Of a stretch of 64,000 bases of DNA, positions 39,657 through 61,605 are shown piece after piece (positions within the stretch are counted from its first letter, which is position 1; each line of letters opens with the position of its first letter). Location: positions 32,001 to 96,000 of the forward strand of contig JAHQWL010000070.1 of NCBI GenBank assembly GCA_029856155.1, read 5' to 3'. The notes under the pieces are model-generated. The model was not told the DNA's origin and did not search any database. It saw only the letters and a list, made by a program, of their open reading frames with translations. The DNA comes from Promethearchaeia archaeon. GTDB taxonomy: Archaea > Asgardarchaeota > Lokiarchaeia > Sigyniarchaeales > SOKP01. Made by a program: the position numbers and the translations under genes.

Positions 39657-42137
39657 TTAAGCATGTTTCGATTTATTTGAACTACCTATCTTCTCGATTC
39701 CCTTAATCCAACTATCCAACTGCTTTAATAATTTCTGTGTATTTGGTACGCGGCTTATCTGCTCAGAATATAGAGGATAATATAGATATAGACCATTGAG
39801 TAATTCAAGTAAAGATTTCTGGCTTTCTGTTTGACCTGATATGTCTTTTTTCAACTGAAAAAGAGATCTTTTTTCCTTCTTAGATTTTAAGGCTTTTAAA
39901 AAGTTTTTAGTAACAATTATTCTAAAAGCGGAATATTCTTCAGGTCTAAAGTTAAATAGAGAAAAATTCATGCTATAGTCTGCAAATGGTAAAAATAGTA
40001 TTCTTTTATCCTCTGGCTCATCTGGGTTATCAATTAAAGTAAATTCAATATCTCTTTTATCAAGTTCATCTAAAATTGGATATAATTCTCCTGGGTTGAT
40101 TTTTGTAGCTTGCTCAATTTGATTTGAAATTTCAGAAATAGGAAAATTAAATTCGGGAGTTTTTTCAGGATTTTCAATTCGATAAATATATTCTTTTCTT
40201 ATTATTTGCATAATTTGGCTTTCTAAATCTTCAGCAAGATTCTCTGCTGTAAAAGAAAATTGAGTTTCCTTTCTTTTTTGTTTGAAGAATTCACTATCTC
40301 TTTGTTTCTTGCTATAATCAGCTGAAAGTGATGAGATAAAACTATCTGTTGGCTGATCACCTTCTACTGTACCTAATCTACTAGTTTTAGTTTTCTTTTC
40401 TATAGCTGTTTCGTATAACCTTTCACTCAAATATCTCCTAGCTTTCTGATGAGCAACTTCCTTTTTCTCAAAACGCTCAGTTACGGAAACAAAATCAAGC
40501 ATTTTCACAGGTTTTCCTAAATCTTGCTTTTCCTCCCTTATTAGAATGTCCATGTCTTTCTTTACCAATGTATTTAGAAGTGCATAAACATTACTTTTTG
40601 ATAATTGAGTTGCTTTAATTAATTCTCGTTCAATTATTTCAATCGGATAAGCCTCGCCTCTTCGAATGTATTCACTTCTAATAATTTTATAGACCTTGTC
40701 TAGGCTTCTCTCCTCTTCACTAACAGTTTCTTTTTGTAATCTCATAAACATTGAAGTCTCGTGAGGTTTTATATAGTAAACTAATAGTGTGGTACCTAAG
40801 AAAAAAATCATAATTACTGAGATAATGTATTTATCCCACATTAAAATTACACCCACATCAGATATTATTTGATTTTGTATTTGATTTGCAAGAGAGAAAC
40901 GTGTCAATGTTTGAGCGAAAACACAAGCTAAACAAAATAAAATTAAGCCATCTTTTTTGAAGATAAGTATACGCCAACCAAGAGTTTTCCCTAGTTTCTT
41001 TACAATTCGATATAAAAAATACATTGATATGATAAATTCGAATAGAAAGATATATGAAACAGCAGACCCTGTTGCCCCAATTGTTGCTTTAAAAGCAGTG
41101 ATTGTCTCATCTTGAAGCAACATATACATACTGATTTGTAAAATTTGAAAGAAAAAGATAAAAAAAACAATCAAAGCAAAAGTTAAATTATCAAAAGTAC
41201 CCGCTCTTTTAGTTTCAGCTCGTCGTCTAGTAGATACATATTCAAAAATGATAAAAACTAATGTCATTACTAAACTAAAGTAAATCAAGGGCATAATTCT
41301 TGTCATTTCTAAATTATAAACTGCCACAGCACTGCTTGGATCACTACGTCCGAAAAATTCCAGAGATAAGATTACTAAAAAACTCCTGTAAAATAATGAG
41401 ATTACTACAAGCATAGCCAATATTATAAAAGGAATGATAATGGCTAAGAAATATCTTGGAATTGAATATTTCTTAATGAATCTGGCTTCTATTTTAGTTG
41501 AGAATTTTCTTGAATAAATATAAAACCGACTACTCAATAAGACTAACCAAATCATCGCTAGGCTTAATAAATAGCTCATAAAGTTGAGACTTGTCCCAAC
41601 ATATAGAAAAAGTATAAATAAAGATAAAATAAGACCACAATAAAATATTAATTGCTTAATTGCACTGTTTTTTTCAAAAATAAAGAGCCTAAACTTATCT
41701 ATACTAAGGAGAATGGATAAAATTAGAAAAAACGCCACAATTGTATTTGAAAATGCAAATGGATTACCAAATGTTAAGATATTAATCCAAGACCCTGGAA
41801 AATTAATTGCTGTAATTAAAACTAAAGAATAAAAAATGAATATTGCATATAATCCAAAAAATTTCTTTTCAAAAGAATATGATTTTGGCTCTTGACCATT
41901 AATATACACTTCTTGATGGATAATTTTATCATAAAAACTAGATTTCATTTTAGATTTTAAAGCACCTAAATTTGCCCTTTTTCGTGAAGAAAAGTCTTTA
42001 ACCTTCTTTTTTGCCCCTATTTTCCCCCGTTTTGAGGTTTTTGGTAATTTTAATACTTTAAATTTCTCTTGTTTTTTCTTGGTTTCTTCTTCAGAATCAT
42101 TTGACTTTTTTGAAGAATTAGATTGCTTTCCAGACAT
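39657..42137 (-). CDS. Large multi-pass membrane protein with duplicated soluble C-terminal domain
   Basis: Lys-rich N-terminus, about 10 hydrophobic segments, about 370 aa soluble tail with an internal repeat. Confidence 0.8.
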   Translation of the reverse strand: MSGKQSNSSKKSNDSEEETKKKQEKFKVLKLPKTSKRGKIGAKKKVKDFSSRKRANLGALKSKMKSSFYDKIIHQEVYINGQEPKSYSFEKKFFGLYAIFIFYSLVLITAINFPGSWINILTFGNPFAFSNTIVAFFLILSILLSIDKFRLFIFEKNSAIKQLIFYCGLILSLFILFLYVGTSLNFMSYLLSLAMIWLVLLSSRFYIYSRKFSTKIEARFIKKYSIPRYFLAIIIPFIILAMLVVISLFYRSFLVILSLEFFGRSDPSSAVAVYNLEMTRIMPLIYFSLVMTLVFIIFEYVSTRRRAETKRAGTFDNLTFALIVFFIFFFQILQISMYMLLQDETITAFKATIGATGSAVSYIFLFEFIISMYFLYRIVKKLGKTLGWRILIFKKDGLILFCLACVFAQTLTRFSLANQIQNQIISDVGVILMWDKYIISVIMIFFLGTTLLVYYIKPHETSMFMRLQKETVSEEERSLDKVYKIIRSEYIRRGEAYPIEIIERELIKATQLSKSNVYALLNTLVKKDMDILIREEKQDLGKPVKMLDFVSVTERFEKKEVAHQKARRYLSERLYETAIEKKTKTSRLGTVEGDQPTDSFISSLSADYSKKQRDSEFFKQKRKETQFSFTAENLAEDLESQIMQIIRKEYIYRIENPEKTPEFNFPISEISNQIEQATKINPGELYPILDELDKRDIEFTLIDNPDEPEDKRILFLPFADYSMNFSLFNFRPEEYSAFRIIVTKNFLKALKSKKEKRSLFQLKKDISGQTESQKSLLELLNGLYLYYPLYSEQISRVPNTQKLLKQLDSWIKGIEKIGSSNKSKHA

Positions 42138-42273
42138 TATATAAATAAATCTTTTTTATTCATATAAACCTAATTGTAATATAAAATTGAAAACTAATGG
42201 TACTATATTTAGTAAAGTATAAGTTCTATATACAAATTTTAAAAATATTCCAATATAAATTTAAATATAGTTA

Positions 42274-42570
42274 ATGCATTTTAGTATTGTGAAAATGGAA
42301 AGAAAAGTTGAAAACAGAGAAAGCCTTTTAAAGTTAATCAAAAAAGCTATTGAATTGCTTGCCGAGAAAAATGTATCTCAAACAGTGATTTTATCTTCTT
42401 ATAAGATTAACTCCGTTTTAAAAGAAAATTACGGCATAAATATAAAAGTTGATAAAATTGGTAGAATTCTGAGTAAAATAGCTAAGTTAAATGAATTAAA
42501 AAGGCTTAATACTAACATCCCGAAATATAAATTACAAATCTCTAAGGTTTCGAGTTTAGAATTCTTTTAA
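42274..42570 (+). CDS. Small basic protein, winged-helix-like
   Basis: 98 aa, Lys-rich; SSYKINSVLKE.YG..IKVDKIGRILSK...PKYKL. Confidence 0.6.
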   Translation: MHFSIVKMERKVENRESLLKLIKKAIELLAEKNVSQTVILSSYKINSVLKENYGINIKVDKIGRILSKIAKLNELKRLNTNIPKYKLQISKVSSLEFF

Positions 42571-42572
42571 GT

Positions 42573-43979
42573 TTACCTTTCACCTAAATTTCGAAACGTA
42601 GTAATTGTTTTTTGAAGTTTCTCAATTAAAACTTTTATTTCTGAGTTAAATTCTTTGAATGGTTCCAACTCCGTGTTCATTTTTTCGATTTTGTCCTCAA
42701 GATTTGTTTGAAATGAAGTATTAGAATTTTCAAACTTTTTTTCAGTATTTTGAGCTAAAGAATTTACTTGATTATTAGTAATTATTAATTCAGATTGAAG
42801 TTTTTTTATTAATTTTTCGATTTGTGAATTTATTTGCATAGATTCTTCAACCTTTCCAGATATAGAACTACCTACCAGTTCCATCTCATTTTTAATATTT
42901 GATATGTAATCTTCGATGAGATTGTTTAGACTATCAATAAGAATGTTCTTAGTAGTAGAGATCTCTGTTATGAATTCTTTATTATTTTCAATTCGAGCAT
43001 TAATATAATTAGATACACTTTTTTTAAACTCAGTTCCCGTTTCATTCAATGTCATATTGAACCAATTGGCAACTTTATTTATTCCAGATGATATTGCTTC
43101 CTTCATTTTATTTATTGACTTACTAATATATTCAGTTCCTTTAGAGGTTCCTAGATTTACATCTTTAATCCAATCTCCAATTTGAGTTTTGGTAATATTT
43201 ATGAACATCTCTGAGAGTTTTTCTGTTCCTTGTTGAAAACCTAAAACGATTGAGGTTAATTCAGGATTTTCTACAATTTCCTCTTGAACTTTCTGTGTTT
43301 CTTCTGTTTTTGGAATTTCTTGTAATTCTCCGAGAGGCTGTTCAGCAAATTCATTTATTTCCTTAATAAGAATAGGATCTTTTTTCTGAAAATCCTCTGA
43401 AAATTTTTGAACCCACTTAAAATACTCTAATGAGTTTGGAATTTCAATTTTAAATGGTACAGTATGATATTTATCAACTTTAGTATAATCATCTAATCTA
43501 TAAATTTCAAATCCAAGATTCCCATCCTTCCCCATGAGTGCATGATCAAACACTATACTAAAACCATAAGGAAATTCTTCCTTTTGGAAATATTGTAAAT
43601 TTACTACATCACTCTCACTGAGATATAAACCCCAAGAAGGGTGAGAATGGTAATAGCCTATTAAAGTAGATGAATATTTTTTACCGATCTCAGTAAACAA
43701 ATCATAAGCATCTTTATCAAATCCAATTTCTGCTTTATCTCCATGAATTAGAGGAACGGCATTTTCTACAATGACCTTTTCTTCGATATTATCATATTTT
43801 CCTATACAGATCCCCATTACTTCTATGCTTTGTTCTAATTTATCACTACCAAAACGTAGAACATGTGTTAGCATGTTTCTAAAAGCTTCCTTCTTAATAA
43901 ATAAATCTCCCTTTTCAGATTTACTTGAACCTTTAAAACTTTTTTGATCCGTATTTTGATTAGATTTTTTTTCAACCAT
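42573..43979 (-). CDS. JAMM/MPN+ metalloprotease with long helical C-terminus
   Basis: EVMGICIG, GYYHSHPSWGLYLSESD, IVFDH. Confidence 0.85.
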   Translation of the reverse strand: MVEKKSNQNTDQKSFKGSSKSEKGDLFIKKEAFRNMLTHVLRFGSDKLEQSIEVMGICIGKYDNIEEKVIVENAVPLIHGDKAEIGFDKDAYDLFTEIGKKYSSTLIGYYHSHPSWGLYLSESDVVNLQYFQKEEFPYGFSIVFDHALMGKDGNLGFEIYRLDDYTKVDKYHTVPFKIEIPNSLEYFKWVQKFSEDFQKKDPILIKEINEFAEQPLGELQEIPKTEETQKVQEEIVENPELTSIVLGFQQGTEKLSEMFINITKTQIGDWIKDVNLGTSKGTEYISKSINKMKEAISSGINKVANWFNMTLNETGTEFKKSVSNYINARIENNKEFITEISTTKNILIDSLNNLIEDYISNIKNEMELVGSSISGKVEESMQINSQIEKLIKKLQSELIITNNQVNSLAQNTEKKFENSNTSFQTNLEDKIEKMNTELEPFKEFNSEIKVLIEKLQKTITTFRNLGER

Positions 43980-43985
43980 TTTCAC

Positions 43986-45464
43986 TCAACCCTCTCCTTT
44001 TTCTAACTTTTTTATCGTTGCTAATAAATCTTGCTTTTCTTTTCTTAAATCTGTGAGATCTTTTTGAAGTGCCCTGATTTCAACTTTTTGTGTATCAATT
44101 TTGTTTTGTAATGGTGTTTTTGAGCTCTCTAATAATATTATAGCAGCTTTTAGATCTGATAGAAAGCTCTTAGATTCTCTATTTAAATTGATAAAATTCC
44201 CTATAATTTTATTAACATTTTTTGTAAATATTCCAGATATATCTTCTATGACATTGTCAAATTTTTCTGGGATTATGTTTTCTATTGAATTGAGGGTTTT
44301 AGATAAATTTTTTATATTATCACTTTGCCCAACCAAACTTTTAGAAGATTCTAGAACTAAATTATTTATCGTAGTTAATTTATCTTTTTGGTTATTAAAT
44401 TGATTTATAATATTATTGACATTTTCCTTTAATTTTTCTTCAACCATAGATTTAAATTGTTCATTAAGTTCAGTCTTGATATTATCAAATAGATCTTTAA
44501 AGTGTTTTTGATCAGAATCAAATTCTTCAAATTTATCATCAATGTACATGTCCAATTCATTTAATTTTTCCTTTAAAGAAAATTTAAAATTTTTTTGAAG
44601 ATTAGAAATACCCTCGCTTAACTTGTCTTTGATTGTAATCACATCTTTTCTTATTTGCAGATTATTCTTAACAGTAGTATTTATTAAATTTTCACTCCAA
44701 GAATTAAGAAATTTGATAAATGGTACAGTAACAACTTCTAATAACTTTGTAAATTCTATATTGAGTTCAGATAAGATCTTTGCAGAATCCAATTCTGGTT
44801 TCTTTGCAAAAATTTGATTTTCACTTGGAAATGCAATATCTCCAAAAAAATCGGGCATTTCATTAATTTCTAGTATGGGCGGTTCTTTTGAATGAACACT
44901 ATTTATTAAATCGATTAATTTTACATAAAATTCAATACTATCAGGAGGTATTACAGTTGCTTTTACCTCGTGATAACCTGACATTTGACCCTTAGCAGGA
45001 TTATCTAATCGAAATGTACGAAATCCTAAATCTCCCGGTTTTTCTAAATAAACATGGTCAAAAACAATTCCTATTGCGCTAGGGTTTGGAGTCTGCCAAC
45101 CAAGTTGATTACGTATATCTGTTGAAGAAAAGAAAATATCCAATCCTGGGTGAGAATGGTACCACCCACAACTAAACCAGTTTTTTTCAGCATAAGCAGC
45201 ATCAACCATAGAAAATGTGACATAATCTTCTGGGGCAAACGCAACTTCTATTGCACCACCATGTGAAATAGGAACAACATCTTCAATTATAACATCTCTA
45301 ATTCCCTTCTTATCAGGTTCACCTTCACCTAAGGACCCTATAAGCATTCCCATTACTTCACGGTACTGCCTTTTATCTCTTTCTTTATTTCCAAAACGAA
45401 GGACATGTAGTAGCATTTTATAATAAGCTTCTGGTTTAATAATAACAGTTTTTTCAGAAGTCAT
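43986..45464 (-). CDS. JAMM/MPN+ metalloprotease (Rpn11/CSN5-like) with long helical C-terminus
   Basis: AYYKMLLH, EVMGMLIG, GWYHSHPGLDIFFSSTDIRNQ, IGIVFD. Confidence 0.88.
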   Translation of the reverse strand: MTSEKTVIIKPEAYYKMLLHVLRFGNKERDKRQYREVMGMLIGSLGEGEPDKKGIRDVIIEDVVPISHGGAIEVAFAPEDYVTFSMVDAAYAEKNWFSCGWYHSHPGLDIFFSSTDIRNQLGWQTPNPSAIGIVFDHVYLEKPGDLGFRTFRLDNPAKGQMSGYHEVKATVIPPDSIEFYVKLIDLINSVHSKEPPILEINEMPDFFGDIAFPSENQIFAKKPELDSAKILSELNIEFTKLLEVVTVPFIKFLNSWSENLINTTVKNNLQIRKDVITIKDKLSEGISNLQKNFKFSLKEKLNELDMYIDDKFEEFDSDQKHFKDLFDNIKTELNEQFKSMVEEKLKENVNNIINQFNNQKDKLTTINNLVLESSKSLVGQSDNIKNLSKTLNSIENIIPEKFDNVIEDISGIFTKNVNKIIGNFINLNRESKSFLSDLKAAIILLESSKTPLQNKIDTQKVEIRALQKDLTDLRKEKQDLLATIKKLEKGEG

Positions 45465-45690
45465 TGTTCATCACGTTTTATGTTTTAGATTTAGTTTGTT
45501 AATGATCTATATATAGTTTAATTTGTTTTAAATATTTGAATAAAAAATTGAAAATTAAAACTGAACTTTTAATTTATTCTGTATTTTGTTTTCTTTTTCA
45601 GAGTAAACTCTAATTCTCTTTCCTTATTCTCTTATCATTATTAAATCAAATAAAAAATAAAAGCAGAATTAAATGTAATTTACTAAATCA

Positions 45691-46347
45691 TTAATCATGA
45701 GGTAATGGCTTACCACAGAAAGGACAGAATCGGAAATCTAAATCTTTACCACAATGTGGACAAAAAGAACCCTCTGTTCCTACTGGTGCTTTTTCCTCAA
45801 CACCTTCTTTTGGTATTGAAGGTAACTGTCTTTTAGTTTTAAGAGTTATAGCAGATGAGGCAGCACTAGGAGTTACTTCTTGTCTTGCCTTCACTCTTTC
45901 CTTAAAAGCTTGTCTTCGTTCTTCCTCAAGTTCTTCTTGTGTTTTAGTACCTTCTGTTTTTACCCATCCTTGAACTTTGGGTCTTTTTAATTCACTTTCG
46001 GGAACCCTTTCCAATTCTACTTCTTTAGTTTCTGAAATTGGAGCAACTAATTTTCTCTCATCCTTCTTCTGTAGGGCTTGTTTTACAAGAGCTTGAGTTG
46101 TTTTCATTACTTGATGGGGATTAATATTAGGAATCGCTACAGTTCTAAGAACCCAACCTACAATAAGATTTTGATTTGGAAAATCGCCTTCGACATCTTC
46201 ATCTTTAAAAACATAAGAATCAATAATATCTTTTCCTTTTAACATGCGAACAGCCCATTTCTCATTAATTAAACCTAATTGTAGTCTGTAAGATGTTCCA
46301 GGTACGCCAAGCTGGCTCGTTAATGGTTCGAATCCTCTCTCTGTCAC
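45691..46347 (-). CDS. Hypothetical protein with C-terminal double zinc ribbon
   Basis: FCPHCGKDLDFRFCPFCGKP; charged linker. Confidence 0.8.
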   Translation of the reverse strand: MTERGFEPLTSQLGVPGTSYRLQLGLINEKWAVRMLKGKDIIDSYVFKDEDVEGDFPNQNLIVGWVLRTVAIPNINPHQVMKTTQALVKQALQKKDERKLVAPISETKEVELERVPESELKRPKVQGWVKTEGTKTQEELEEERRQAFKERVKARQEVTPSAASSAITLKTKRQLPSIPKEGVEEKAPVGTEGSFCPHCGKDLDFRFCPFCGKPLPHD

Positions 46348-46556
46348 TTCAAATCACTTTTTTTCCATAAATTATATGATTTCAGTAATATAATAATGAT
46401 AAATTTTGAATTTATATTATTTTTTATTTATAGTAAAAATTGGTTTTAAAGATAAAAATTTTTTTCGGATAAATTAGAGATTAAAAACACATAAATACAA
46501 AAAATTGTATTAATTTGTAAAAAGCATCCTTAAAAAAAATGTAAAGTGTTTTTAAC

Positions 46557-47507
46557 ATGGTCGTTATAATCCCAAAGAAAGAATATTTAACTTTTGTCGC
46601 TGCTGCTGTTAGATACGCTAATGCACGTATTCCTAAGGATGATTGGTTAGAAGTTAGTGGGGTTTTTATAGGTAAAAATGAGGGTGATAATGTCAGAATT
46701 ACCACTACTTATCCAATCATGCACCAAGAGTTAGATAAAGATGCTGTAATTGATCAATATAAATGGTCTGATGAAGATTATATTGCTCTTAGTATAATTG
46801 ATGACGAAGCATTTTCAGAAGGAGAATTTACAGTAGGATGGTGGCATTCACATCCGGGATTTAAGGTAATGATGTCTCATATTGATATCCGAACAACCCT
46901 ATCTTATCAGCAAAATAATCCTTTAGCTATTTCACTTGTATTTAACCCTACGAGATTAATACGTCAAATTGAAGTAGCTAACAAGAAAGGAGATCCCGAT
47001 AAACAGTTAAAAAATGATCCTGGTTTTAAAATTTATCGGTTAGATGATACAAATCAAGGATTAGAAGCATCTTATCACACTGTAGAGTATATAATAGAAG
47101 GGTATGAAAGTATGGAGCAGTTAATTACTCAAACTCAGAAATTTATTGTTGATGTAACTATTTTTTTCCCAAAGGATAATGTTCCGCAAACTTATGAAAA
47201 ATTCGTTGACGATCGAATAACTCAACTGAATTCAATATTCCTTGGTACTGAAGAATATTTAACTACATTGACCAATCGTGGTGAAAAACAAAGGATCCCA
47301 GAAGTTTTAGAAAATCAAAGCAAAGAAATTAGGAAATTTGTAGCTGAAACTATTATTAAGATAGAAAATGTTAAGGAATTCATGAATTATTTAGAATATA
47401 AAGAAAGAGAAACAATAATTCCACAAATCAAGACTATAATAAACAAGTGGGATGAACAGGTTGCTGAATTAGATAAGAAAATAAAACAACTGAAGAAGAA
47501 ATTTTAA
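46557..47507 (+). CDS. JAMM/MPN+ metalloprotease with helical C-terminus
   Basis: EVSGVFIG, GWWHSHPGFKVMMSHID, ISLVFNP. Confidence 0.85.
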   Translation: MVVIIPKKEYLTFVAAAVRYANARIPKDDWLEVSGVFIGKNEGDNVRITTTYPIMHQELDKDAVIDQYKWSDEDYIALSIIDDEAFSEGEFTVGWWHSHPGFKVMMSHIDIRTTLSYQQNNPLAISLVFNPTRLIRQIEVANKKGDPDKQLKNDPGFKIYRLDDTNQGLEASYHTVEYIIEGYESMEQLITQTQKFIVDVTIFFPKDNVPQTYEKFVDDRITQLNSIFLGTEEYLTTLTNRGEKQRIPEVLENQSKEIRKFVAETIIKIENVKEFMNYLEYKERETIIPQIKTIINKWDEQVAELDKKIKQLKKKF

Positions 47508-47631
47508 CTCTAATAATTTTCATCTTATTTTTAGTTTTGATAAATTTTTATTTGATTACGCTTTTTCTTGATTAACTACACGATTATTTTAAAAAAAAAT
47601 ATCAGAGAAATTTTAGTATATAGTCATTATC

Positions 47632-49836
47632 ATGAGAAAAATTAATTTTCCTTTTACAGCGATTCTTGGTCAAGAGAAAATGAAAATGGGGTTAATCTTG
47701 AACGTAATTGACCCTCAAATAGGTGGGATCTTGTTAACTGGCCAACAAGGTACTGGAAAAAGTACCGCTGTAAGATCTCTCGTAGAACTGATGCCTCAAA
47801 TTGAAATTGTTGCGGGTTGTGAATTTTCATGTGACCCTAATTCAGATATTGATGATTTATGCCAAAATTGTATAGGAAAAAAGGAAAATGAGCAAATAGT
47901 CGCAGAATTGCGTGATATGTGGCTTGTAAATCTACCTTTAGGAGTCACAGAAGATATGGTTTGTGGAAGTCTATCAATAGATAAGGTATTAACTGAGGGA
48001 ATAAGAGCTTTACACCCTGGATTACTCGCGAAAGCAAATAGAGGTATTTTATATGTAGATGAAATTAATTTACTCCAAGATCATATAGTTGATGTTCTTT
48101 TAGATTCTGCAGCGTCAGGGGTAAATATCATAGAAAGAGAAGGAATCTCTATATCTCATCCTTCAAGATTCGTTCTGGTTGGTTCAATGAATCCAGAAGA
48201 AGGTGATTTAAGGCCACAAATAGCAGATCGCTTAGGATTAGAAGTTAGAATTAAAGCCCCTAGAGACTCAGAATTAAGAGCAGAAATAACTAAAAGGGTT
48301 ATAGAATTTGATGATCATCCAAAAGAATTTATTAAAAATTTTGAAGATGAACAAGAAAAATTAAGACAACAAATCCTTAATGCTCGTGATATTTTAAAGG
48401 AAGTTCAAATCCCTAGTTCTGTATATGAATTTGTATCTAAAATTGTAAATGAGTTAGAAATCTTTTCTCAAAGAGCAGATATTACGTTTATTCGATGTGC
48501 GAGAGCTCATGCTGCTTTAAATGGTAGAAAGGATATAGTTGAAGAAGATCTTAATGTAGCTATGGATCTAGTATTCGAACATAGAATTCAATCACTTCAT
48601 TATGAAATGACACCGATAGAAATAAAAGCAAAAATAGCTGAAGTATATGGCAAAATAAGAGAGGCTTATGAAAATACAAAAGTACTCCAACCTAATAGAG
48701 AAACAGAAGGCCCTTTAAAGCATTCAGATGAACATCAAAAAGAGTTCAAACGTCAATCTGTTGATCCAGATAAAGTTGATATTCCTGAGACAAGAGAACA
48801 AAAACTACCCCCGCCAAAATATCCCGATGATAAAAGAAGAAATCCTAAACCAGCGGGAGGGTGGAAGGTAAAAAATATTCCTCATATTGATGATCTTAAA
48901 TTTTTCCAAGCTAAAAATGGAACGATACCTTTTATCTATAAAATGGAAAAAAAAATGACTTCAATTCTAGATAGTATTAGAAAAGACAGGAAAATTACGG
49001 ATTATGGTGGAAGAGGAATAGGGCGTCGGATTAAAATATCTTCTTCTCAAAAAGGGAGGTATGTATCATACAGGACACCTATTCGTGAAGAACCAAGAAG
49101 TATCGCTTTAGACGCCACAATTAGGAATTATTTAAAAAATGTTGAGTATAATGAAACTGTAATAGATTTTCCTATACACTTTAATAAGTATGATCTGATG
49201 GATAAAATCTATGAATATCGGGCCCCTTTGGTTATGTTTTTCGTATTAGATAGTTCAGCCTCGATGTACTACGTAATAAAACAAATGACCGATGTAATAT
49301 TATCTCTACACCAAGAAGGATACAGAAAGAGAGATAAAATAGCTCTAATTATATTTCGAGGTAAGGATGCTGTTGTTTTACAAAAACCTACAGTAAATTT
49401 TAAGATGGCGGTAAATAAATTGAAAAAAATAGAAGGAAAGTCTTATACGCCTATGGCTGCGGCATTGAAAAAGGTTTCAGAACTTATTAGAATTGAGCAA
49501 CTAAAAAATCGGCAATCAGTTCCAGTAGCTTTCATTTTATCTGATTGTGGTGCTAATATCTCCGTTAAATATCCGGATTTAATTGCCCAAATCGAAACGG
49601 ATTATACTTTAATTACGCATGAATTAAAAGAATTAACAAAAAAATTATCAAAACAAAAAATACATATGGTAGTTCTGGAACCAAGAAAATCTTATGCAAC
49701 ACACGCTCTTGGAGTACACACATATTCGGCAGATAAAATTAAAAGGAATTTTAAAAAATATGGGAATGCTGAAATTTTTAAATTTAATAAGTATGATCCT
49801 AAATCCTTAATCTTAGAATTGAAAAAAATGCTATAA
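47632..49836 (+). CDS. ChlI/ChlD-like (Mg/Co chelatase-type) AAA+ ATPase fused to vWA
   Basis: FPFTAILGQ, GQQGTGKST, PGLLAKANRGILYVDEINLL, MNPEEG; MIDAS VLDSSASM. Confidence 0.88.
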   Translation: MRKINFPFTAILGQEKMKMGLILNVIDPQIGGILLTGQQGTGKSTAVRSLVELMPQIEIVAGCEFSCDPNSDIDDLCQNCIGKKENEQIVAELRDMWLVNLPLGVTEDMVCGSLSIDKVLTEGIRALHPGLLAKANRGILYVDEINLLQDHIVDVLLDSAASGVNIIEREGISISHPSRFVLVGSMNPEEGDLRPQIADRLGLEVRIKAPRDSELRAEITKRVIEFDDHPKEFIKNFEDEQEKLRQQILNARDILKEVQIPSSVYEFVSKIVNELEIFSQRADITFIRCARAHAALNGRKDIVEEDLNVAMDLVFEHRIQSLHYEMTPIEIKAKIAEVYGKIREAYENTKVLQPNRETEGPLKHSDEHQKEFKRQSVDPDKVDIPETREQKLPPPKYPDDKRRNPKPAGGWKVKNIPHIDDLKFFQAKNGTIPFIYKMEKKMTSILDSIRKDRKITDYGGRGIGRRIKISSSQKGRYVSYRTPIREEPRSIALDATIRNYLKNVEYNETVIDFPIHFNKYDLMDKIYEYRAPLVMFFVLDSSASMYYVIKQMTDVILSLHQEGYRKRDKIALIIFRGKDAVVLQKPTVNFKMAVNKLKKIEGKSYTPMAAALKKVSELIRIEQLKNRQSVPVAFILSDCGANISVKYPDLIAQIETDYTLITHELKELTKKLSKQKIHMVVLEPRKSYATHALGVHTYSADKIKRNFKKYGNAEIFKFNKYDPKSLILELKKML

Positions 49837-54584: not shown

Positions 54585-55394
54585 TTGGAATTTAAAAACA
54601 AAATATTTGACGGTGAATATGAAGTATCTGAAGTTCAAATTAATAATGAAGGGCAAATCTTTCGAGGATTATTATATTTTCCCGCAGAAAGATTTAAAAA
54701 ACCTTATCCATTAGTGATATATTTCCATGGATTTCCAGAGTTATTCACATTAACAGAGATTGTAAGAAAGTATAAATATATTTTAGATTTGGGTTATTCC
54801 CTTCTTATTTTTAATTTTCGAGGATATCGAATTAGTGAGGGCTCCATTTCAATTGGTTCTCAAATCTCTGATAGTTTAAAAATGCTTGAATTCGTAGAAA
54901 TAATGGCAAAAAACAAAATTTTCAATGTTAATAATATTAATATATTAGGTTATGATTTTGGAGCATATATAGCTTTAATGCTATGTTCTAGAATTAACAC
55001 TATAAATAAATTGATAATTGTCAGTCCGATTCTAGATTTAAAAAAACATGTTAATAGCATAGACTTTCCGAGAGCATTGAGTTATATTAATAGATTTCTT
55101 CCAGGTTATATCAGAGGAATTGAAAATATTGAAAAATTTATTGAAACTACAAAAGAAGAGTTAAATAATGATCAATTTCAGATAGAGAAATTTATAAATC
55201 AGTTGAAGATAAAAAAGTTAAAAATAGTTATCGGAGAAATTGATAATCTCACACCAATTTCAGAAGTTAAAAAGGTCTTTCAAAAAACAAATGTTAGATA
55301 TGAACTTTCAATCATTGACAACATGGATCATGAATGTGGGGATGAGGCGGAATTAGAAAACTTGAATAAAGAGATATTGAAATATTATATATAA
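54585..55394 (+). CDS. Alpha/beta hydrolase fold protein
   Basis: YFHGFP, FNFRGY..SEG, nucleophile elbow GYDFG, GEID, DH. Confidence 0.8.
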   Translation: MEFKNKIFDGEYEVSEVQINNEGQIFRGLLYFPAERFKKPYPLVIYFHGFPELFTLTEIVRKYKYILDLGYSLLIFNFRGYRISEGSISIGSQISDSLKMLEFVEIMAKNKIFNVNNINILGYDFGAYIALMLCSRINTINKLIIVSPILDLKKHVNSIDFPRALSYINRFLPGYIRGIENIEKFIETTKEELNNDQFQIEKFINQLKIKKLKIVIGEIDNLTPISEVKKVFQKTNVRYELSIIDNMDHECGDEAELENLNKEILKYYI

Positions 55395-55406
55395 ACACAT
55401 ATTCTT

Positions 55407-55913
55407 TTGAGGGAATTAAATTTGACGAAATATCATATGAGAAAAGTTGAAAAAGAAATCAAAAATAAGAAAAACTTAATAGAAATATTAAGGGGTGGAA
55501 AGTTTACAACCATTTCAATGTGCAAGGAAAATGAACCCTATATAATAACATTAAGTTATGGTTATGACGAATCTAAACATGCTCTATATTTTCATTGCGC
55601 AAAAGAAGGGCAAAAAATTGATTTTATACAAGCTAATCCTTATGTGTGTGGTACTATTATAGAAGATAATGGTTATAAAGATGGATGTGGACAGACATTC
55701 CGATCTATTATATTTAGGGGTAAGATAGTGATTATTGAAGAATTAGAGGAAAAAAAATATGGATTCGACATTCTCATAAATCAGTTAGAAACCGATCCCA
55801 TTGCCATTAAAAATAAATTCCTCAAACAAGATATAACTTATGAAAATTGTGGTATTTTAAGATTAGACTTAACCGATATTTCTGGTAAAGAAGAAAAAAT
55901 AGATTCTGAATAA
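55407..55913 (+). CDS. Pyridoxamine 5'-phosphate oxidase-like (NimA-type) flavin-binding protein
   Basis: PYIITLSYGY, LYFHCAKEGQKID, NPYVC, RSIIFRG. Confidence 0.85.
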   Translation: MRELNLTKYHMRKVEKEIKNKKNLIEILRGGKFTTISMCKENEPYIITLSYGYDESKHALYFHCAKEGQKIDFIQANPYVCGTIIEDNGYKDGCGQTFRSIIFRGKIVIIEELEEKKYGFDILINQLETDPIAIKNKFLKQDITYENCGILRLDLTDISGKEEKIDSE

Positions 55914-55926
55914 TATAATTTGAACT

Positions 55927-56712
55927 TTAAAATTTTATTGATTTAAAAACAGTTTGCCAGCAATATTGTCTAAAAAAATTGATTTTGTATAAAGGAAATT
56001 CAATAAATTGAAGAAATTTATATAGAACACTGTAAATTCTTGGTTTTTTGAAAAAAATTTTAAAAAGCATGGTTGATGGAGAAATAATATAATATTCAGC
56101 ATGCTTGATATTACCAAATATCTTTTTTGCATTCATAACCTCTGATAATAATAAAGGATGTTCATGTTTTGTCCTTTTTTTTGGATTTAGATGTTTTCTA
56201 TTCATTTCTACTATAGGATTTTTCTTTAGTGGTTCTATAAAGGTAATGAACCCTTTTTTTTTAAGTAATCGTTTACATTCTCGGAAGAATAGTTCGATAT
56301 CTGGTAAGTGATGAAGAATTCTTGAACCTACTATAATATCAAATGTGTTATCTTCAAAATCTGGAATTTGAGCGTTCATAACTCTAAAATCTACATTGAG
56401 ATTTAAAAGATTCATTTGATTTTTACAGAATTTTATAAAATTTTTTGATAAGTCGATTCCTATTACACTTGCTCCCTTTCGAGCTAAATAAAAGGAAAGA
56501 TTCCCTCGACCACATCCAATATCTAATACTTTCTTTCCTTCAATATTTCCTAGCATGTTTTTTAATTTTATATTAACCTGCTTAAAGAAGTTCTCATCCT
56601 CTAAATCAAATTTTTTTCCCGGACGTAAGATCTTTTTATTATAATACTTTTCTTCATTTCTGAATATGTGGTTAAACTTTGATAGTGTTTTCTTTTTTTC
56701 TTGATCATCCAT
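55927..56712 (-). CDS. Class I SAM-dependent methyltransferase
   Basis: VLDIGCGRG, GIDLS, FDII, LHH, FIEP. Confidence 0.9.
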   Translation of the reverse strand: MDDQEKKKTLSKFNHIFRNEEKYYNKKILRPGKKFDLEDENFFKQVNIKLKNMLGNIEGKKVLDIGCGRGNLSFYLARKGASVIGIDLSKNFIKFCKNQMNLLNLNVDFRVMNAQIPDFEDNTFDIIVGSRILHHLPDIELFFRECKRLLKKKGFITFIEPLKKNPIVEMNRKHLNPKKRTKHEHPLLLSEVMNAKKIFGNIKHAEYYIISPSTMLFKIFFKKPRIYSVLYKFLQFIEFPLYKINFFRQYCWQTVFKSIKF

Positions 56713-56815
56713 GAATATCGAATCTTACAGTATCTTAATAGTAATATTTAATTCTTTAAAATAAATATATTGAAATGTTATTGAATGCGATCACTAAAAA
56801 CGTCGATAAAAATAT

Positions 56816-58177
56816 ATGATTAAAAAGTATCAAGAAATATATGATATAGATATTGAGGAAGCAGAATTTTTTTTAGAATTAGAAAAGACGCAAACTGAAG
56901 CTAAAAGGATTGAAGGTTCGAAAATAGGGTACTTTAAAAAGTTTCAAGCCAATAATATGGATGTATTCAATAATGATGACTATTATGGTTATGTAAAAGA
57001 AGAATCACATATTATTGCATTAGATTTGAGTCGATGGGAAATAAAAGAACTTCCAGAATCTATTGGAAAACTGTCAAAACTGCAATATTTAAGTTTAGCA
57101 AATCTTGAATTGGAAAGTTTACCTGAATCCATTAAATATCTCTCTCACCTTAAATATTTTAATTTAGGGGGAAATAAGATTAGTACTCTACCAAATTGGT
57201 TGATAGATTTTATTGAAAGTAAATTCTCACAAAATTATATAAATAAGGGAGTAAATTCTACAGAAGTAAAAGTACTAGGTATATTAGAAGTTCTCAAAGG
57301 AAATAGATTGGAGAAAGTAAGCATAGATAGTGATGTAATTCACTGGGAGTATGCTTTAAATTATAAGATTAACAAAGAAGGACATATTATAGGGATTTAT
57401 ATAAATGATGAGAAAAGCGGAGTTGCAATCTTCCCAGAAATAATATGTACTCTTAGATATCTCCAAGAATTAGTTTTATCACAATCGTCAATCGAATTCT
57501 TGCCAAATTGTATTGGTGAACTTCATAATCTCAGATATTTGGATCTATCATTTAACAGAATTAACTGTATCCCAGAGTCAATAAATGAATTAGTAAATTT
57601 AGAGTATTTGGATCTAAATGATAATAATCTCTCTGAAGAAGTGTTATCATTTCTAAACTGGAACAAAAATGGGCAAAATTCTCTTGATAAAGGTGATTAT
57701 AATAGTGTAATTCAAGAATGCAACAATACATTAAAAATATATCCTAAGAATAAAAGTGCTTGGTTCAACCTAGGAATCGCTTATAAAGAGGAAGGGGAAT
57801 ATTCTAAAGCTGAAAATGCACTTAAACAATTTTTAGAAATCGATCCGCAGGCTTCAGTTGTATGGAGTAATCTAAGTGATATTTATTATCAAAAGGGAGA
57901 TTATACTAACGCTATTGTTGCAATAAAGCGAGCATTAAAAACTGAACCGAATGTTGCATTTTTATGGAGTAACCTTGGTTTTAATTTTAAGAAATTGGGA
58001 AAATATGATAAAGCTATTGGTGCCTATTTACACTCACTCGGTATAAATCCAAAAAATAAAAATGTATGGAAAGATCTAGCTTCAATATATCGCTACAAAG
58101 GTGACTACATGAAAGCAATTGAAGCTGATGAACATGCTTTAGAAATTGAATTAAACTCAAACGATGAGGACGAATAA
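56816..58177 (+). CDS. Leucine-rich-repeat + TPR protein
   Basis: LPESIGKLSKLQYLSL-type LRRs in two blocks; AWFNLG, VWSNL, LWSNLG TPRs. Confidence 0.88.
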   Translation: MIKKYQEIYDIDIEEAEFFLELEKTQTEAKRIEGSKIGYFKKFQANNMDVFNNDDYYGYVKEESHIIALDLSRWEIKELPESIGKLSKLQYLSLANLELESLPESIKYLSHLKYFNLGGNKISTLPNWLIDFIESKFSQNYINKGVNSTEVKVLGILEVLKGNRLEKVSIDSDVIHWEYALNYKINKEGHIIGIYINDEKSGVAIFPEIICTLRYLQELVLSQSSIEFLPNCIGELHNLRYLDLSFNRINCIPESINELVNLEYLDLNDNNLSEEVLSFLNWNKNGQNSLDKGDYNSVIQECNNTLKIYPKNKSAWFNLGIAYKEEGEYSKAENALKQFLEIDPQASVVWSNLSDIYYQKGDYTNAIVAIKRALKTEPNVAFLWSNLGFNFKKLGKYDKAIGAYLHSLGINPKNKNVWKDLASIYRYKGDYMKAIEADEHALEIELNSNDEDE

Positions 58178-58184
58178 AGAAAAA

Positions 58185-58835
58185 CTAATCTAAGTATTGA
58201 CTAATGTATCGTTGAACTTCGCTCGCAGGTTGAAAAATCCCAAAATGCCCCTCACATAGGATATCAGCGTTAAGATCTAAGAGTTTTTTTAACGAATTTT
58301 GATAATCATCATAATTACTTACTCCAGGAATAATAGGTCCATGCAAATCTTGCCCAAATAGAATTTTCTTATTATCCTCAGTTTCAGTCAATATTGAAAT
58401 AGAGCCGGGAGTATGGCCCGGAGTATGAATGCATTGAAAATCATAGATTCCAAAACTTAAAATTTCAGAATTTCCTTTCAATCTTTTTGTGAGTTTAACA
58501 GGTTGATATCTTACACCATACCACATAGCTGCTGTTTCTCTATCATGGCCTTTCTCTTCTATTGCGTTTGCATCAAATTCATGAGCGTAATAATTCACAT
58601 TTTTATTAAATTGTTTCAAATCATAACAAGCACCGATATGGTCTATATGGAAATGGGTTATAATGCAATGTCTTATGTCCAATGGATTCAAATTAACTTT
58701 ATTGATCTTCTTTATCATTTCAAGACTCATTCCACAATCTATTAAAACAAGACCTTCCTCACTATGAGTATTTACTAAATATACTGAACAACCAGAATCT
58801 CCGATATGATAAAAATCCTTAGTTATTTCTTTCAA
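58185..58835 (-). CDS. MBL-fold metallo-hydrolase (glyoxalase II-like)
   Basis: LIDCG, THFHIDHIG, TPGHTPG, GQD, EGH. Confidence 0.9.
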   Translation of the reverse strand: MKEITKDFYHIGDSGCSVYLVNTHSEEGLVLIDCGMSLEMIKKINKVNLNPLDIRHCIITHFHIDHIGACYDLKQFNKNVNYYAHEFDANAIEEKGHDRETAAMWYGVRYQPVKLTKRLKGNSEILSFGIYDFQCIHTPGHTPGSISILTETEDNKKILFGQDLHGPIIPGVSNYDDYQNSLKKLLDLNADILCEGHFGIFQPASEVQRYISQYLD

Positions 58836-58962
58836 ATTTTATTCTCCTTATTACTATTAATCAATCATTATGATTAATTATTTAAAAAATAATAGTTTTG
58901 TATAAATCCAGATTTAAATGATATTATTTTTAAAAAACCTTTTAATTAAATTTCATTTAAGA

Positions 58963-59760
58963 TTAGGATCTTTTGATATAAAGTTTTTTGTAGAGCAGAA
59001 TTGTAATAACTGCTGCCAACATTGTTGAAAATAAAACGTCTGAAGTATAATGAGCTCCAATGACAATGCGAGATAAACCAACAAATAGTCCCCATCCAAA
59101 AATTAAGATATAGAATAAAATCTTAACAATATCCGTATTCTTTCGATCTTTTACTACAATTAATAAAGGTAAAAACATCCATCCCATTGCGGTATGACCG
59201 CTAGGAAAACTCTGGTTTCCAGTTATCCCTTGCGGCAAAAACCAAGGAGTATAATCTATAAAACCAGGAGCAAGGTCTCTAAATCGAACTCTTCCCCATA
59301 AAAGCTTGCTTATTTGTACAAATACTAGTGGATTGATAATTGCTAACAGCAAAATTATTCCTGCTAAAGTTCTGTAGTTCTTCCAATCTTTATTCCATGT
59401 GATAATTACATAAAATATCAATGGAATAATTAAACCCCATCCTGTATAAAAGTCTGTCTCATCATTAGCAAATATAATGAAAAGGATTCCAACAATTACG
59501 GATATATAAGCAGGGATTTTTTGCAAATTTAAATTCTTATTAAAACTCCCTAAGTAAGTTGCTAGCGCTATTGCTATTAATGCATATCCAGGAACTTCTC
59601 CATAATCTCTTCCAAAGATACCCCACGCTGAATTTTCATCTACAACTGCTTTTGATATCTCTAAATCAGTAAAACCAAAAACTAAAGCAAGTATCACCCA
59701 TACTATTATAAGAATGAGTAATAATTTTGATGTAAATGATTTTTTCAACTTTTCAAGCAT
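58963..59760 (-). CDS. PAP2-family membrane phosphatase
   Basis: K.LWGRVR, SFPSGHT, SRIVIGAHYTSDV. Confidence 0.9.
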   Translation of the reverse strand: MLEKLKKSFTSKLLLILIIVWVILALVFGFTDLEISKAVVDENSAWGIFGRDYGEVPGYALIAIALATYLGSFNKNLNLQKIPAYISVIVGILFIIFANDETDFYTGWGLIIPLIFYVIITWNKDWKNYRTLAGIILLLAIINPLVFVQISKLLWGRVRFRDLAPGFIDYTPWFLPQGITGNQSFPSGHTAMGWMFLPLLIVVKDRKNTDIVKILFYILIFGWGLFVGLSRIVIGAHYTSDVLFSTMLAAVITILLYKKLYIKRS

Positions 59761-60044
59761 TCTTATACCCTTGTAGAGTTAATCGAATCAAAATTAATAA
59801 ATAGAGAACTTTTTACTAATAATCCTAATTAACTCTTTTTTTATTTAAAATATTCCATTTTAAAAGTAAAGGGTACGTCTAGATAATCTGTGTAAATTGC
59901 TTTTACTCGTAGATTATGATAGTTTAAATCTATAACTCTCTTCCCACCCATTTTTGCATTGACTCCCCAAATATAACATTTGAATCATTTGTCTTATTCC
60001 CTTTTAATTAAAATGTAAAAGAGAGTTACTATACATAGCAAATT

Positions 60045-60851
60045 TTACGTGATTCTTAAAACATTATTGAGCAAAAAATCTAGACTTTGTAAAGCATCTT
60101 TAAATGATTTATTTTCGATAATTAGATTTTTATTTTTTAAACTTGGTAATTTTAAAAATAATGATTTAATTGGAATTGTTCCCTCTTCCAAGTTTCCATG
60201 GGTATCTTTCCCAAAATTATTTGATAAGTGAATAGCAATTACAGGAAAGTCACAGATAATTGAAATATCAACTAATAAAGCGTCGGAATTAATATAAAAG
60301 GTATTTAAATGTCCTATATCAAGTAAAAATTGTAGAGTAGGGAATTTTTGGCTATAATATTGAAAATCATTTATATTTTCAATCAAACCAGTTGTCATAG
60401 ATTTTTGACGATTTTCAATTGCTAATGGAATTGAATAGAAATCAGATATTTTGATTAATTCTGAAATAGTCTTAATTTGTTGTTTATGAGCTTTTTCTTT
60501 TACTAAAGACATTTGATAAAATGTATCACTAATCTTTCCTGTATGTATAACAATATAAAGAGGATTCCATTTCTTTACGAATATAATCTCCTTTCTTAAT
60601 AATCTACTTGAATAATAACGCATTTTATCATCTAATGAGGCAATATTTACATCAATAAATGATAAATGGAAAGAAAGTTGTAAATCTGATGAATAAAGTC
60701 TGTTAATAAGTTTTATTGATTTTTTCCGATGCTCTCGAAATTTAAATATTGTATTATCTAATTGAATTTCACATAAATCGATATTTAGATCAAATATTGA
60801 ATTTATTACTTTCTCAAAATCCCACTTAGCACGAATTGAAATTCCTAACAT
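60045..60851 (-). CDS. Sugar phosphate isomerase/epimerase (xylose isomerase-like TIM barrel)
   Basis: SFHL, VIHTG, IEN, LDIGH, IHLSNN.GKDTH, IIE. Confidence 0.8.
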   Translation of the reverse strand: MLGISIRAKWDFEKVINSIFDLNIDLCEIQLDNTIFKFREHRKKSIKLINRLYSSDLQLSFHLSFIDVNIASLDDKMRYYSSRLLRKEIIFVKKWNPLYIVIHTGKISDTFYQMSLVKEKAHKQQIKTISELIKISDFYSIPLAIENRQKSMTTGLIENINDFQYYSQKFPTLQFLLDIGHLNTFYINSDALLVDISIICDFPVIAIHLSNNFGKDTHGNLEEGTIPIKSLFLKLPSLKNKNLIIENKSFKDALQSLDFLLNNVLRIT

Positions 60852-60917
60852 ATTAACATATAAACTATTAAATCCTAAAAAATTTTAGGGATTAAAATTA
60901 ATAAATAATAGATATAA

Positions 60918-61538
60918 ATGCCTGCAAAAGGAGATGGTTTGGTTTCAAAACATATTAATAGACCTTTTTCTCGTCAACTTACCAAATTTATTTTGCATTT
61001 TTGGCCAAAATGTAACCCAAATCTAATATCTATTATATCCGCTTTAACTGGAATTATTGGTTCAATCTTATTTTTTATGAATTTTCCTTTTTTGGGAGTT
61101 GTTTTTATTCAAATTTCAAGTATAATTGATGGTTCTGATGGTGAAGTAGCCCGTGCCAATGGGAGAACATCCTTTTTTGGAGGTTTCTTTGATTCTGTAA
61201 TGGATCGTTATGTTGATGTTTTTATATTTGTAAGTCTCACGTTCTATTCTCTAAGAGTTCTTTTAATTACACAAGCATTTTTATTAGGAATAATTGCTAT
61301 AACTGGTGCCTATTCAATAAGCTATACTGCTGCTAAGGTCGAGTTAAAAGAAGAAATTAATTTTTCTAGAACAGTTCAAGGTCGTGATACACGACTGTTT
61401 ATTGTGTTTTTAGCAGGAATTTGTGCAATATTCTCAGATTGGGCGATTCCAATATGCTTAATCTTAATTTCAATTCTAACTCATGGATCTGTTATTTTAA
61501 GAATAAATCAAATCAGAAAAAATAGTGATTTAGACTGA
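60918..61538 (+). CDS. CDP-alcohol phosphotransferase (DIPP synthase-like)
   Basis: DGSDGEVARANGRTSFFGGFFDSVMD signature; N-terminal GDGLVSKHINR. Confidence 0.85.
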   Translation: MPAKGDGLVSKHINRPFSRQLTKFILHFWPKCNPNLISIISALTGIIGSILFFMNFPFLGVVFIQISSIIDGSDGEVARANGRTSFFGGFFDSVMDRYVDVFIFVSLTFYSLRVLLITQAFLLGIIAITGAYSISYTAAKVELKEEINFSRTVQGRDTRLFIVFLAGICAIFSDWAIPICLILISILTHGSVILRINQIRKNSDLD

Positions 61539-61605
61539 TATACTATATCAGCAGAATTCAACTATTTTTCATCAATTCTAATATTTTCTATAAATACTAA
61601 TTTTC

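Follow-up and report, generated by a model that had tools for sequence, protein, structure and literature searches.

Introduction

What do three neighbouring MPN-domain genes, each with an intact JAMM active site, encode in an Asgard archaeon: one protease complex, an enzyme with a partner, or separate enzymes? The question is raised by positions 42573-47507 of a 64,000-nucleotide stretch of DNA (hereafter the window) from a Promethearchaeia archaeon (GTDB lineage Asgardarchaeota; Lokiarchaeia; Sigyniarchaeales; SOKP01), taken from contig JAHQWL010000070.1 of assembly GCA_029856155.1, a genome of 4.1 Mb with ~29% GC. The answer that we favour, with moderate confidence, is that the two minus-strand genes, MPN_B and MPN_A, encode a heterodimer on a helical stalk, in which B would be the obligatory isopeptidase and A a partner with a dispensable site, and that the third gene, MPN_C, encodes a separate enzyme that would act with a Zn-ribbon protein. 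To our knowledge, the eukaryotic JAMM deubiquitinases Rpn11, CSN5 and BRCC36 work solely as heterodimers with a catalytically dead paralogue, and the origin of such pairs of an enzyme and a dead paralogue is, as far as we know, known from their end states alone.

Results

Three MPN Genes with Complete Zinc Sites

In the list of open reading frames (ORFs), positions 42573-47507 hold three MPN-domain ORFs with the Zn-ribbon gene between them. The three genes and their JAMM motifs are as follows.

42573..43979, minus strand: MPN_A, 468 aa from the ATG and 470 aa from a GTG at 43985; MPN head ~27-206, helical tail ~262-470; zinc site intact in this genome
43986..45464, minus strand: MPN_B, 492 aa; MPN+ head 1-191, linker 192-245 and ~244-residue helix 246-489 in the AlphaFold2 (AF2) model
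46557..47507, plus strand: MPN_C, 316 aa; MPN domain 1-190, tail 191-316; MPN+
43608..43649, minus strand: JAMM motif of A, HSHPSWGLYLSESD, residues 113-126, with Glu55 at 43821-43823; this segment is swapped for dead variants in relatives
45117..45158, minus strand: JAMM motif of B, HSHPGLDIFFSSTD, residues 103-116, with the catalytic Glu36 at 45357-45359; the alignment columns are invariant
46845-46886, plus strand: JAMM motif of C, HSHPGFKVMMSHID, residues 97-110, with Glu32

All three proteins pass the Pfam JAB model (PF01398, cut-off 22.5 bits), A with 35.8 bits (E = 7.8e-9), B with 44.0 bits (E = 2.2e-11) and C with 50.8 bits (E = 1.8e-13), and the catalytic Glu together with the HxH-x7-S-x2-D zinc site is complete in each of them. 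All three are paralogues, at a similarity far above chance. A and B have 30% identity over 320 aa that reaches into the tail (E = 3e-34); the similarity of B to C (31% identity, E = 5e-24) and of A to C (25%, E = 2e-11) covers the MPN domain only. A first-pass annotation, made from the letters of the window, had described three MPN genes with full catalytic motifs and helical tails, had called the two minus-strand genes adjacent paralogues, and had seen no ubiquitin, E1, E2 or ESCRT gene in the window. The ORFs, the Pfam JAB matches and the exact motif positions confirmed the first of these statements and the A/B alignment the second, and the third was borne out by a Pfam search of the genome, in which matches for ubiquitin, ThiF/E1, UQ_con/E2 and Snf7 fell on other contigs only.

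Loss of the Active Site in Relatives of MPN_A

Around 120 database relatives of each protein were aligned, and the five catalytic columns (E/H/H/S/D) were read. MPN_B kept E-H-H-S-D in 115 of 115 full-length relatives, and the columns of MPN_C were intact in 120 of 120 relatives, as they were in a second family. For MPN_A, the columns were intact in 73 of 121 relatives, and the zinc site had been lost in 47 of the 121. The dead columns are diverse (EIRTT, ESHSA, ESHSE, ELHSG, ENHSA, EQRTS and others), and the genes that carry them are full-length ORFs that retain the non-catalytic blocks HVLRFG, EVMG, FDHT, FKWVQKF and ELQEIP and lie beside an intact B. One such natural pair with a dead A is formed by L025:9843-11402 and L025:8487-9836. 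A comparable arrangement occurs in another family, where an MPN+ gene and a gene of 422 aa overlap, and the latter has lost Glu, both His, Ser and Asp. The statement of the first-pass annotation that all subunits are still active thus holds for the window genome, with its intact sites, but not for sister species, which carry natural MPN+/MPN- pairs.

Gene trees bear on how often this loss occurred. In trees of the MPN part of A (first 235 residues), the dead groups formed a ladder below the intact clade of the window, and an approximately unbiased (AU) test of a single dead clade gave p 0.058, just short of rejection. This ladder was rejected, being contradicted by the partner-gene tree and by the full-length tree; one dead group is misplaced in it, probably through faster evolution of the head. 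On the tree of the B genes that adjoin 43 of these A genes, the state of A needs 6 changes, and the well-supported branches force at least four. In the full-length A tree built without the motif columns, a dead group designated RTi is nested inside the intact crown clade (supports 99, 96 and 99), and its proteins are 62-67% identical to an intact crown A, whereas their identity to the other group that bears this dead motif is 40-43%. Because of the changes on the B-gene tree and the nesting of RTi in the full-length A tree, A must have been inactivated at least twice, and probably four or more times.

One dead motif, I/Q-S-R-P-G-W-G-L-D-F-T-D/E-I-T/S, occurs in three groups that lie far apart in the A gene tree. 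Forcing them into a single clade cost 217 log-likelihood units (p-AU 5.5e-68), which rejects a single origin, in a test whose groups were set by the motif and which was run after the tree had been inspected. The DNA of one RTi gene was then set against the others in a single comparison. Around the motif (codons 100-140), RTi was 76-82% identical to the distant group and 49-68% to its crown relative. Over the flanking codons 20-40 and 180-220, the values were 81-85% for that crown relative and 56-67% for the distant group. The residues flanking the RTi motif are of the older A type (GWY, PGWGL) and not of the crown type (GYY, PSWGL). Because local DNA similarity reverses between motif and flanks, the comparison points to a recombined patch as the source of the RTi dead site, and not to convergent point mutation.

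Conservation of the B-A Tandem

All 24 genomes of the genus that were searched have B followed by A. The tandem also occurs in other genera of the family and, beyond it, in three genomes that belong to two further families of the order. Within the family a larger block is kept with occasional breaks, consisting of a membrane/winged-helix protein, a 98-aa protein, A, B, the Zn-ribbon gene and C, so that the three MPN genes and the Zn-ribbon gene lie within ~5 kb through most of the family. The features of the tandem and of its neighbours on the MPN_A side are given here.

43977..44000, minus strand: B/A junction; stop TGA of B at 43986-43988, a GTG immediately after it and an ATG 6 nt on; stop-to-start gap of 0-6 nt
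within the last codons of B, minus strand: Shine-Dalgarno-like run GGAGAGGG, preceding the ATG of A at 43979
45508..45515, minus strand: TATATATA box-like run, ~45 nt upstream of the ATG of B, inside a 226-bp AT-rich spacer
42274..42570, plus strand: small protein of 98 aa that adjoins MPN_A throughout the family; context only
39657..42137, minus strand: polytopic membrane protein of 826 aa whose soluble tail consists of winged-helix-like units; kept as a neighbour within the family

Translation of MPN_A most likely starts at the ATG at 43979, which is also the start of the 468-aa entry in the protein database. The form of the junction indicates close or translational coupling of the two genes, and the TATATATA run may be a candidate promoter of the B-A unit.

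The range of these genes was surveyed across the phylum in 151 genomes from 29 families at a threshold of E <= 1e-25. At this threshold, B-type and C-type proteins were found in this order alone; of the 124 Asgard genomes sampled from elsewhere, none gave a match. A fourth family has one longer stalked MPN+ gene on its own, without a partner gene. The linkage across Asgard genomes that had been expected from the window therefore stood for the B-A tandem, which is kept across the family and beyond, but not for C, which is not constantly linked to the pair; outside the order, nothing was found in the sampled genomes.

Several further observations concern the same genes. In genome G039, from another family of the order, four tandem MPN genes of 203, 246, 471 and 452 aa lie at L028:5446-9670, and a homologue of the 826-aa membrane/winged-helix protein lies 2 kb downstream of them. 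Proteins 65-72% identical to MPN_B are labelled Thor-, Odin-, Hod- and Hermodarchaeota and Promethearchaeota at NCBI; these five labels are probably unreliable labels of metagenome bins and not a sign of a wide range. In another genus, A/B orthologues (G047:C11:60150-61601, G046:C31:14984-16354 and G056:C25:246-1610) have one or two stops inside the match, for which match overruns, frameshifts or additional mini-introns are possible causes. A similar stop noted in the A orthologue of genome G009 was dismissed, the match having overrun the gene ends of an intact ORF. For window positions 42200-47600, the listed sources were DNA contigs of sediment and salt-marsh metagenomes, with no RNA source among them.

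Predicted A:B Complex and Stalk

In the AF2 model of B, an MPN domain (1-191, predicted local distance difference test score (pLDDT) ~80-90) is followed by a low-confidence linker (192-245) and a continuous helix (246-489). The A:B complex was predicted with full-length chains and both alignments, in three runs and beside three controls. The interface score (interaction prediction score from aligned errors, ipSAE) was 0.66 (0.66, 0.67 and 0.64 in the runs), against 0.00 for the best of the three controls; among solved complexes 58 of 80 attained that mark, as did 2 of 110 mismatched pairs. The runs had at least 84% of their contacts in common, with a partner pLDDT of at least 67. In the predicted head interface, B 11-29 and 173-193 meet A 33-48 and 178-204, each chain contributing its first helix and its post-MPN helix. 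The tails are predicted to touch at a spacing of 3-4 residues along B 253-312/A 270-329 and B 353-452/A 369-462, which would indicate a parallel coiled coil. Of the coiled-coil-scaffolded hetero-oligomer of MPN subunits that the first-pass annotation had envisaged, the part that is supported is A and B, given their conserved tandem, the score of 0.66 against 0.00 and the repeated loss of catalysis in A only; a place for C as a third subunit is not supported.

For the tail alone, no paralogue was found in the genome and no match in the Atlas. An apolipoprotein- or BAR-like lipid-binding tail was considered and rejected, the matches being sub-threshold, with 18.7 bits for apolipoprotein (cut-off 90) and E = 3e-3 for amphiphysin.

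Comparison with Known MPN Systems

A Foldseek search with the B model returned, with BRCC36 chains as the best hits, BRCC36 (6gvw_B, E = 3.6e-13, the alignment running into the tail helix), Rpn11 (4o8x_B, template modelling (TM) score by target 0.73), CsRpn11 (6fjv, 0.75) and CSN5, and superposition on Rpn11, CsRpn11 and BRCC36 gave TM scores by target of 0.73-0.77. The best solved relatives by sequence were CsRpn11 (6fjv, E = 1.7e-10) followed by Rpn11 for B, and CSN5 for A and C. The E-values to CSN5 and Rpn11 ranged from 1e-7 to 4e-9 with no consistent preference, so that none of the three can be called an orthologue of Rpn11 or CSN5.

The nearest analogue of A/B is BRCC36-KIAA0157, of the BRCC36-KIAA0157/Abraxas type that forms the core of BRISC and BRCA1-A, whose heads are joined around helix alpha-1, in which alpha-4 and alpha-5 of both chains form a coiled-coil bundle, and in which the dead partner is needed for activity (Zeqiraj 2015, PMC4579573). 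In the favoured reading, as in BRCC36-KIAA0157/Abraxas, an MPN+ enzyme would bind an MPN paralogue, which in the A/B system is dead in many relatives, and the predicted A:B interface uses the first helices (B 11-29, A 33-48), the post-MPN helices and the tails. Several features set the two apart. The sequence similarity of B to BRCC36 is weak (E = 5e-5) and does not establish orthology; the A/B tails of ~200-240 residues are predicted to form a long two-stranded stalk in place of a short two-helix bundle; and partner A is still MPN+ in the window genome, with A/B confined to one archaeal order.

The likeness to Rpn11-Rpn8 and CSN5-CSN6 lies in the eukaryote-type MPN fold with its GW(Y/W)HSHPG context and in the principle of an MPN+/MPN- heterodimer held by MPN contacts and C-terminal helices. 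Unlike in those complexes, the A/B tails are predicted to be long coiled coils, and a helical bundle of PCI subunits is not inferable: a Pfam PCI search of the genome matched winged-helix parts only, and such matches also occurred in 4 of 14 control genomes and are thus not diagnostic. Rpn11 has its own operon-encoded counterpart elsewhere in this genome (contig C44). CsRpn11 of Caldiarchaeum subterraneum and the JAMM of Asgard ubiquitin operons (Fuchs 2018, PMC6043591) are, like B, archaeal MPN+ proteins of the eukaryote type. CsRpn11 is short and lies inside an operon with ubiquitin, E1 and E2, whereas the window genes are long-tailed, stand outside such an operon, and include two that form a paralogue pair; the operon-type JAMM of this genome is a 276-aa gene on contig C44, distinct from A, B and C. 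The HvJAMM1 desampylase (NF041370) is likewise an archaeal JAMM/MPN+ metalloprotease and acts on conjugates of ubiquitin-like (SAMP) proteins, but its family consists of short single-domain proteins without tails, and A, B and C score 18.3, 18.5 and 20.3 bits on the NF041370 equivalog model, below its cut-off of 130 bits.

The suggestion that the trio resembles a precursor of the eukaryotic MPN heterodimers was not upheld. Because B-type and C-type proteins were not found in the 124 sampled outside genomes, and because the sequence affinity to Rpn11, CSN5 and BRCC36 is weak and shows no clear preference, A/B and C are best read as a lineage-specific parallel to BRCC36-Abraxas and Rpn11-Rpn8, and not as an ancestor of the eukaryotic complexes. 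In the part of the literature that could be searched, which is incomplete, no paper on stalked MPN pairs in Asgard archaea was found.

MPN_C and the Zn-Ribbon Protein

Full-length MPN_C orthologues with 40-44% identity were found in 57 of 61 genomes of the order, in some of which no A/B pair was found. In genomes G006, G065 and G043, C is either at another place or separated from the pair by 13-21 kb. Its tail (191-316) is shorter than those of A and B and has no similarity to them. The constant neighbour of C is the following gene.

45691..46347, minus strand: Zn-ribbon protein of 218 aa, with an N-domain (10-100), a disordered linker and a C-terminal CxxC…CxxC ribbon; divergent neighbour of MPN_C

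The Zn-ribbon gene stays beside C and is divergently transcribed, an adjacency kept in two families. MPN_C is more conserved than A/B and is paired across the order with the Zn-ribbon gene rather than with them; it would thus be a separate MPN+ enzyme, and the conserved divergent adjacency suggests that C and the Zn-ribbon protein may work together. A complex of three subunits, as first suggested for this locus, does not agree with these findings.

The N-domain of the Zn-ribbon protein is modelled by AF2 with three strands and two helices (pLDDT ~90), and the linear motifs VELEKVPE…KRP…GWVK and R-x-LPSIP of the linker are kept across two families. In two genera (L055:8160-8891 and L056:8448-9317), a coiled coil takes the place of the C-terminal ribbon, and every match of the protein to Pfam Zn-ribbon families fell below the cut-off of that family. 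For the N-domain, a Foldseek search of the PDB had no hit at E <= 0.001; in the VIA wide search, the best row was a de novo design (Z 6.7), accompanied by scattered PH/EVH1-like rows at Z 4-5, all in the background range; and in the Atlas the domain matched its own Promethearchaeota cluster only.

An insert of 30-31 nt with in-frame stops directly follows the HSHPGF codons of the C orthologue in five genomes of the genus, in an ORF that is otherwise intact (L020:12660-12689 in G005, L027:12354-12384 in G004, and L049, L050 and L051); the equivalent site in the window, ~46862/46863, has no insert. The insert and its flanks fold as a bulge-helix-bulge in which the outer helix pairs in 87% and the 4-bp central helix in 100% of cells, with one compensatory change from C-G to U-A; overall, 83.8% of cells pair, against at most 53% with slid partners. 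Cuts two nucleotides into each 3-nt bulge would give exactly the TTT|AAG junction of the window gene. The insert is likely a tRNA-type mini-intron in an mRNA.

On the far side of C lie genes for an AAA+-vWA protein, an ATP-grasp protein and Roadblock proteins, which adjoin C in one family only and in two genera are separated from it by inserts of 2.5-3.5 kb. The AAA+-vWA (ChlI/ChlD-like), ATP-grasp and tandem Roadblock genes were therefore rejected as parts of the system and are taken as mere synteny. In the window, positions 47632-49836 encode a 734-aa fusion of AAA+ (ChlI-like) and vWA (ChlD-like) parts that is 84-91% conserved within the genus; on TIGR02442, the putative cobaltochelatase model, it scores 592 bits, below the cut-off of 779.

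Ubiquitin System and Other MPN Genes of the Genome

In the Pfam search of the whole genome, the ubiquitin, E1 and E2 matches lay on contigs C44, C54, C35, C52 and C24, and none on the contig of the window. Contig C44 (~55100-61600) carries ubiquitin-like genes, an E1, a 175-aa E2, the 276-aa Rpn11-like JAMM and a membrane protein of 395 aa whose C-terminus is Cys-rich and RING-like, a set that by its gene content is a canonical Asgard-type ubiquitin operon. One ubiquitin-like gene of C44 lies at 57362-57538, and one of contig C52 at 101469-101657. On contig C54, E2-like and E1-like genes accompany a 178-aa MPN gene, and contig C35 has another E1 and E2. Judged by these genes, conjugates would be available in the genome for the enzymes of the window, with nothing that ties A/B or C to a given one. 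There are seven MPN matches in the genome, including a 374-aa MPN+ protein with a helical tail of its own. On contig C10 (L003:352-1962), a 536-aa MPN+ protein is fused to a TPR/SNAP-like helical-repeat C-terminal domain and is conserved, with ~510-570 aa, across the family as a further tailed MPN paralogue.

Discussion

In the arrangement that we favour, MPN_B and MPN_A would be made from one close-coupled two-gene unit and would assemble into a parallel heterodimer. The heads would pack via the first helix and the post-MPN helix, the type of contact seen in Rpn11-Rpn8 and BRCC36-KIAA0157, and the tails of ~200-240 residues would wind into a two-stranded coiled coil ~30-36 nm long. B would be the obligatory zinc isopeptidase (Glu36, His103, His105, Ser113 and Asp116), and A a structural or regulatory partner whose zinc site is dispensable, and which may provide a second active site in the window genome. 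We infer a deubiquitinase-type activity. Its likely substrates are ubiquitin-like proteins of the organism itself, as conjugates or as precursors, for which the E1/E2 operons are found at other places in the genome. The stalk may be anchored, and the 826-aa membrane/winged-helix protein would be a speculative candidate for the anchor. MPN_C would be a different, older and more constrained MPN+ enzyme that acts with the divergent Zn-ribbon protein and not with A/B. The evolutionary support for the pair is independent of the complex score, because an old duplication has been kept close-coupled with one copy free to lose catalysis.

Several points weigh against this reading. The predicted coiled-coil contact has an unconfident gap at B 313-352, and the complex score is the model's own confidence, so that the pass may partly be a memory of solved MPN+/MPN- heterodimers with C-terminal helices. 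Close relatives tend to pass as well, and the score does not separate A:B from B:B or A:A homodimers. With both sites intact in the window genome, a catalytic B and a scaffolding A are extrapolated from relatives, and the lone stalked MPN+ genes of the fourth family make homodimers possible for this fold.

These points bear most directly on the possibility that A, B and C are independent self-dimerising enzymes with coiled coils of their own, the tandem reflecting a mere recent duplication. The partnerless stalked genes, a score blind to hetero- versus homodimers and the intact sites of the window genome would all suit such enzymes, but the duplication is old, with A and B at 30% identity, and yet its close-coupled order is kept across the family and beyond. 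Moreover, loss of the zinc ligands in 47 of 121 relatives is not expected of a free-standing enzyme that is still kept as a conserved full-length ORF beside an always-intact B, and we therefore regard this possibility as unlikely. A single all-active hetero-oligomeric isopeptidase of all three MPN proteins, possibly with the Zn-ribbon and AAA+-vWA proteins, is suggested by the compact ~5-kb cluster in most of the family and by the three intact sites of the window genome. It agrees poorly with the order-wide occurrence of C and the Zn-ribbon gene, which extends to genomes in which no A/B pair was found, with the separation of C from the pair in G006, G065 and G043, with the shorter and dissimilar C tail, with the family-restricted and interrupted adjacency of the AAA+-vWA, ATP-grasp and Roadblock genes, and with the many relatives in which A is dead; we consider it highly improbable.

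It may also be asked whether these proteins are isopeptidases of the ubiquitin type at all. MPN domains have non-protease roles in eIF3f/h and Prp8, the ubiquitin, E1 and E2 genes are unlinked to the locus, the tails give weak matches to apolipoprotein and amphiphysin BAR models, and a polytopic membrane protein is a conserved neighbour; the heads could then be scaffolds, or could cleave another ubiquitin-like protein, a peptide or a modified metabolite, and the amphipathic tails may bind membranes. Against this, all five catalytic positions are strictly conserved in both B and C, which argues for catalysis; the nearest solved relatives are without exception ubiquitin or Nedd8 isopeptidases; the tail matches lie far under their curated cut-offs; and the predicted dimer contacts show the 3-4 spacing typical of coiled coils. 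We give this explanation little credence, and an A:B heterodimer with a catalytic B, beside a separate MPN_C, remains the reading that we prefer.

A further-reaching interpretation of A/B is offered tentatively, as possible rather than probable. A/B could be a living series from an enzyme pair to an enzyme plus a dead twin, in which a dead cassette, with Arg and Asp at former zinc ligands, would have been recombined onto at least three unrelated A backgrounds. The dead state would then be selected, for example with A as an allosteric activator of B in the way that KIAA0157 serves BRCC36, and the stalk of ~30-36 nm would be a spacer to an anchor, perhaps the membrane/winged-helix neighbour. Spread of the dead cassette by recombination, if true, would mean that the dead state was selected for and not merely tolerated.

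The trio is lineage-specific, which corrects the tempting reading of it as an ancestor of the eukaryotic complexes. The design of an enzyme with a dead twin would instead be an independent development in archaea that possess a ubiquitin system, and its intermediates survive. The intact pair of the window genome and the partly or fully dead partners of its close relatives offer natural matched pairs for probing the role of a pseudo-deubiquitinase partner. If both the stalk and the activity are true, a catalytic head on a coiled coil of 30-36 nm would be an unreported architecture among MPN proteases.

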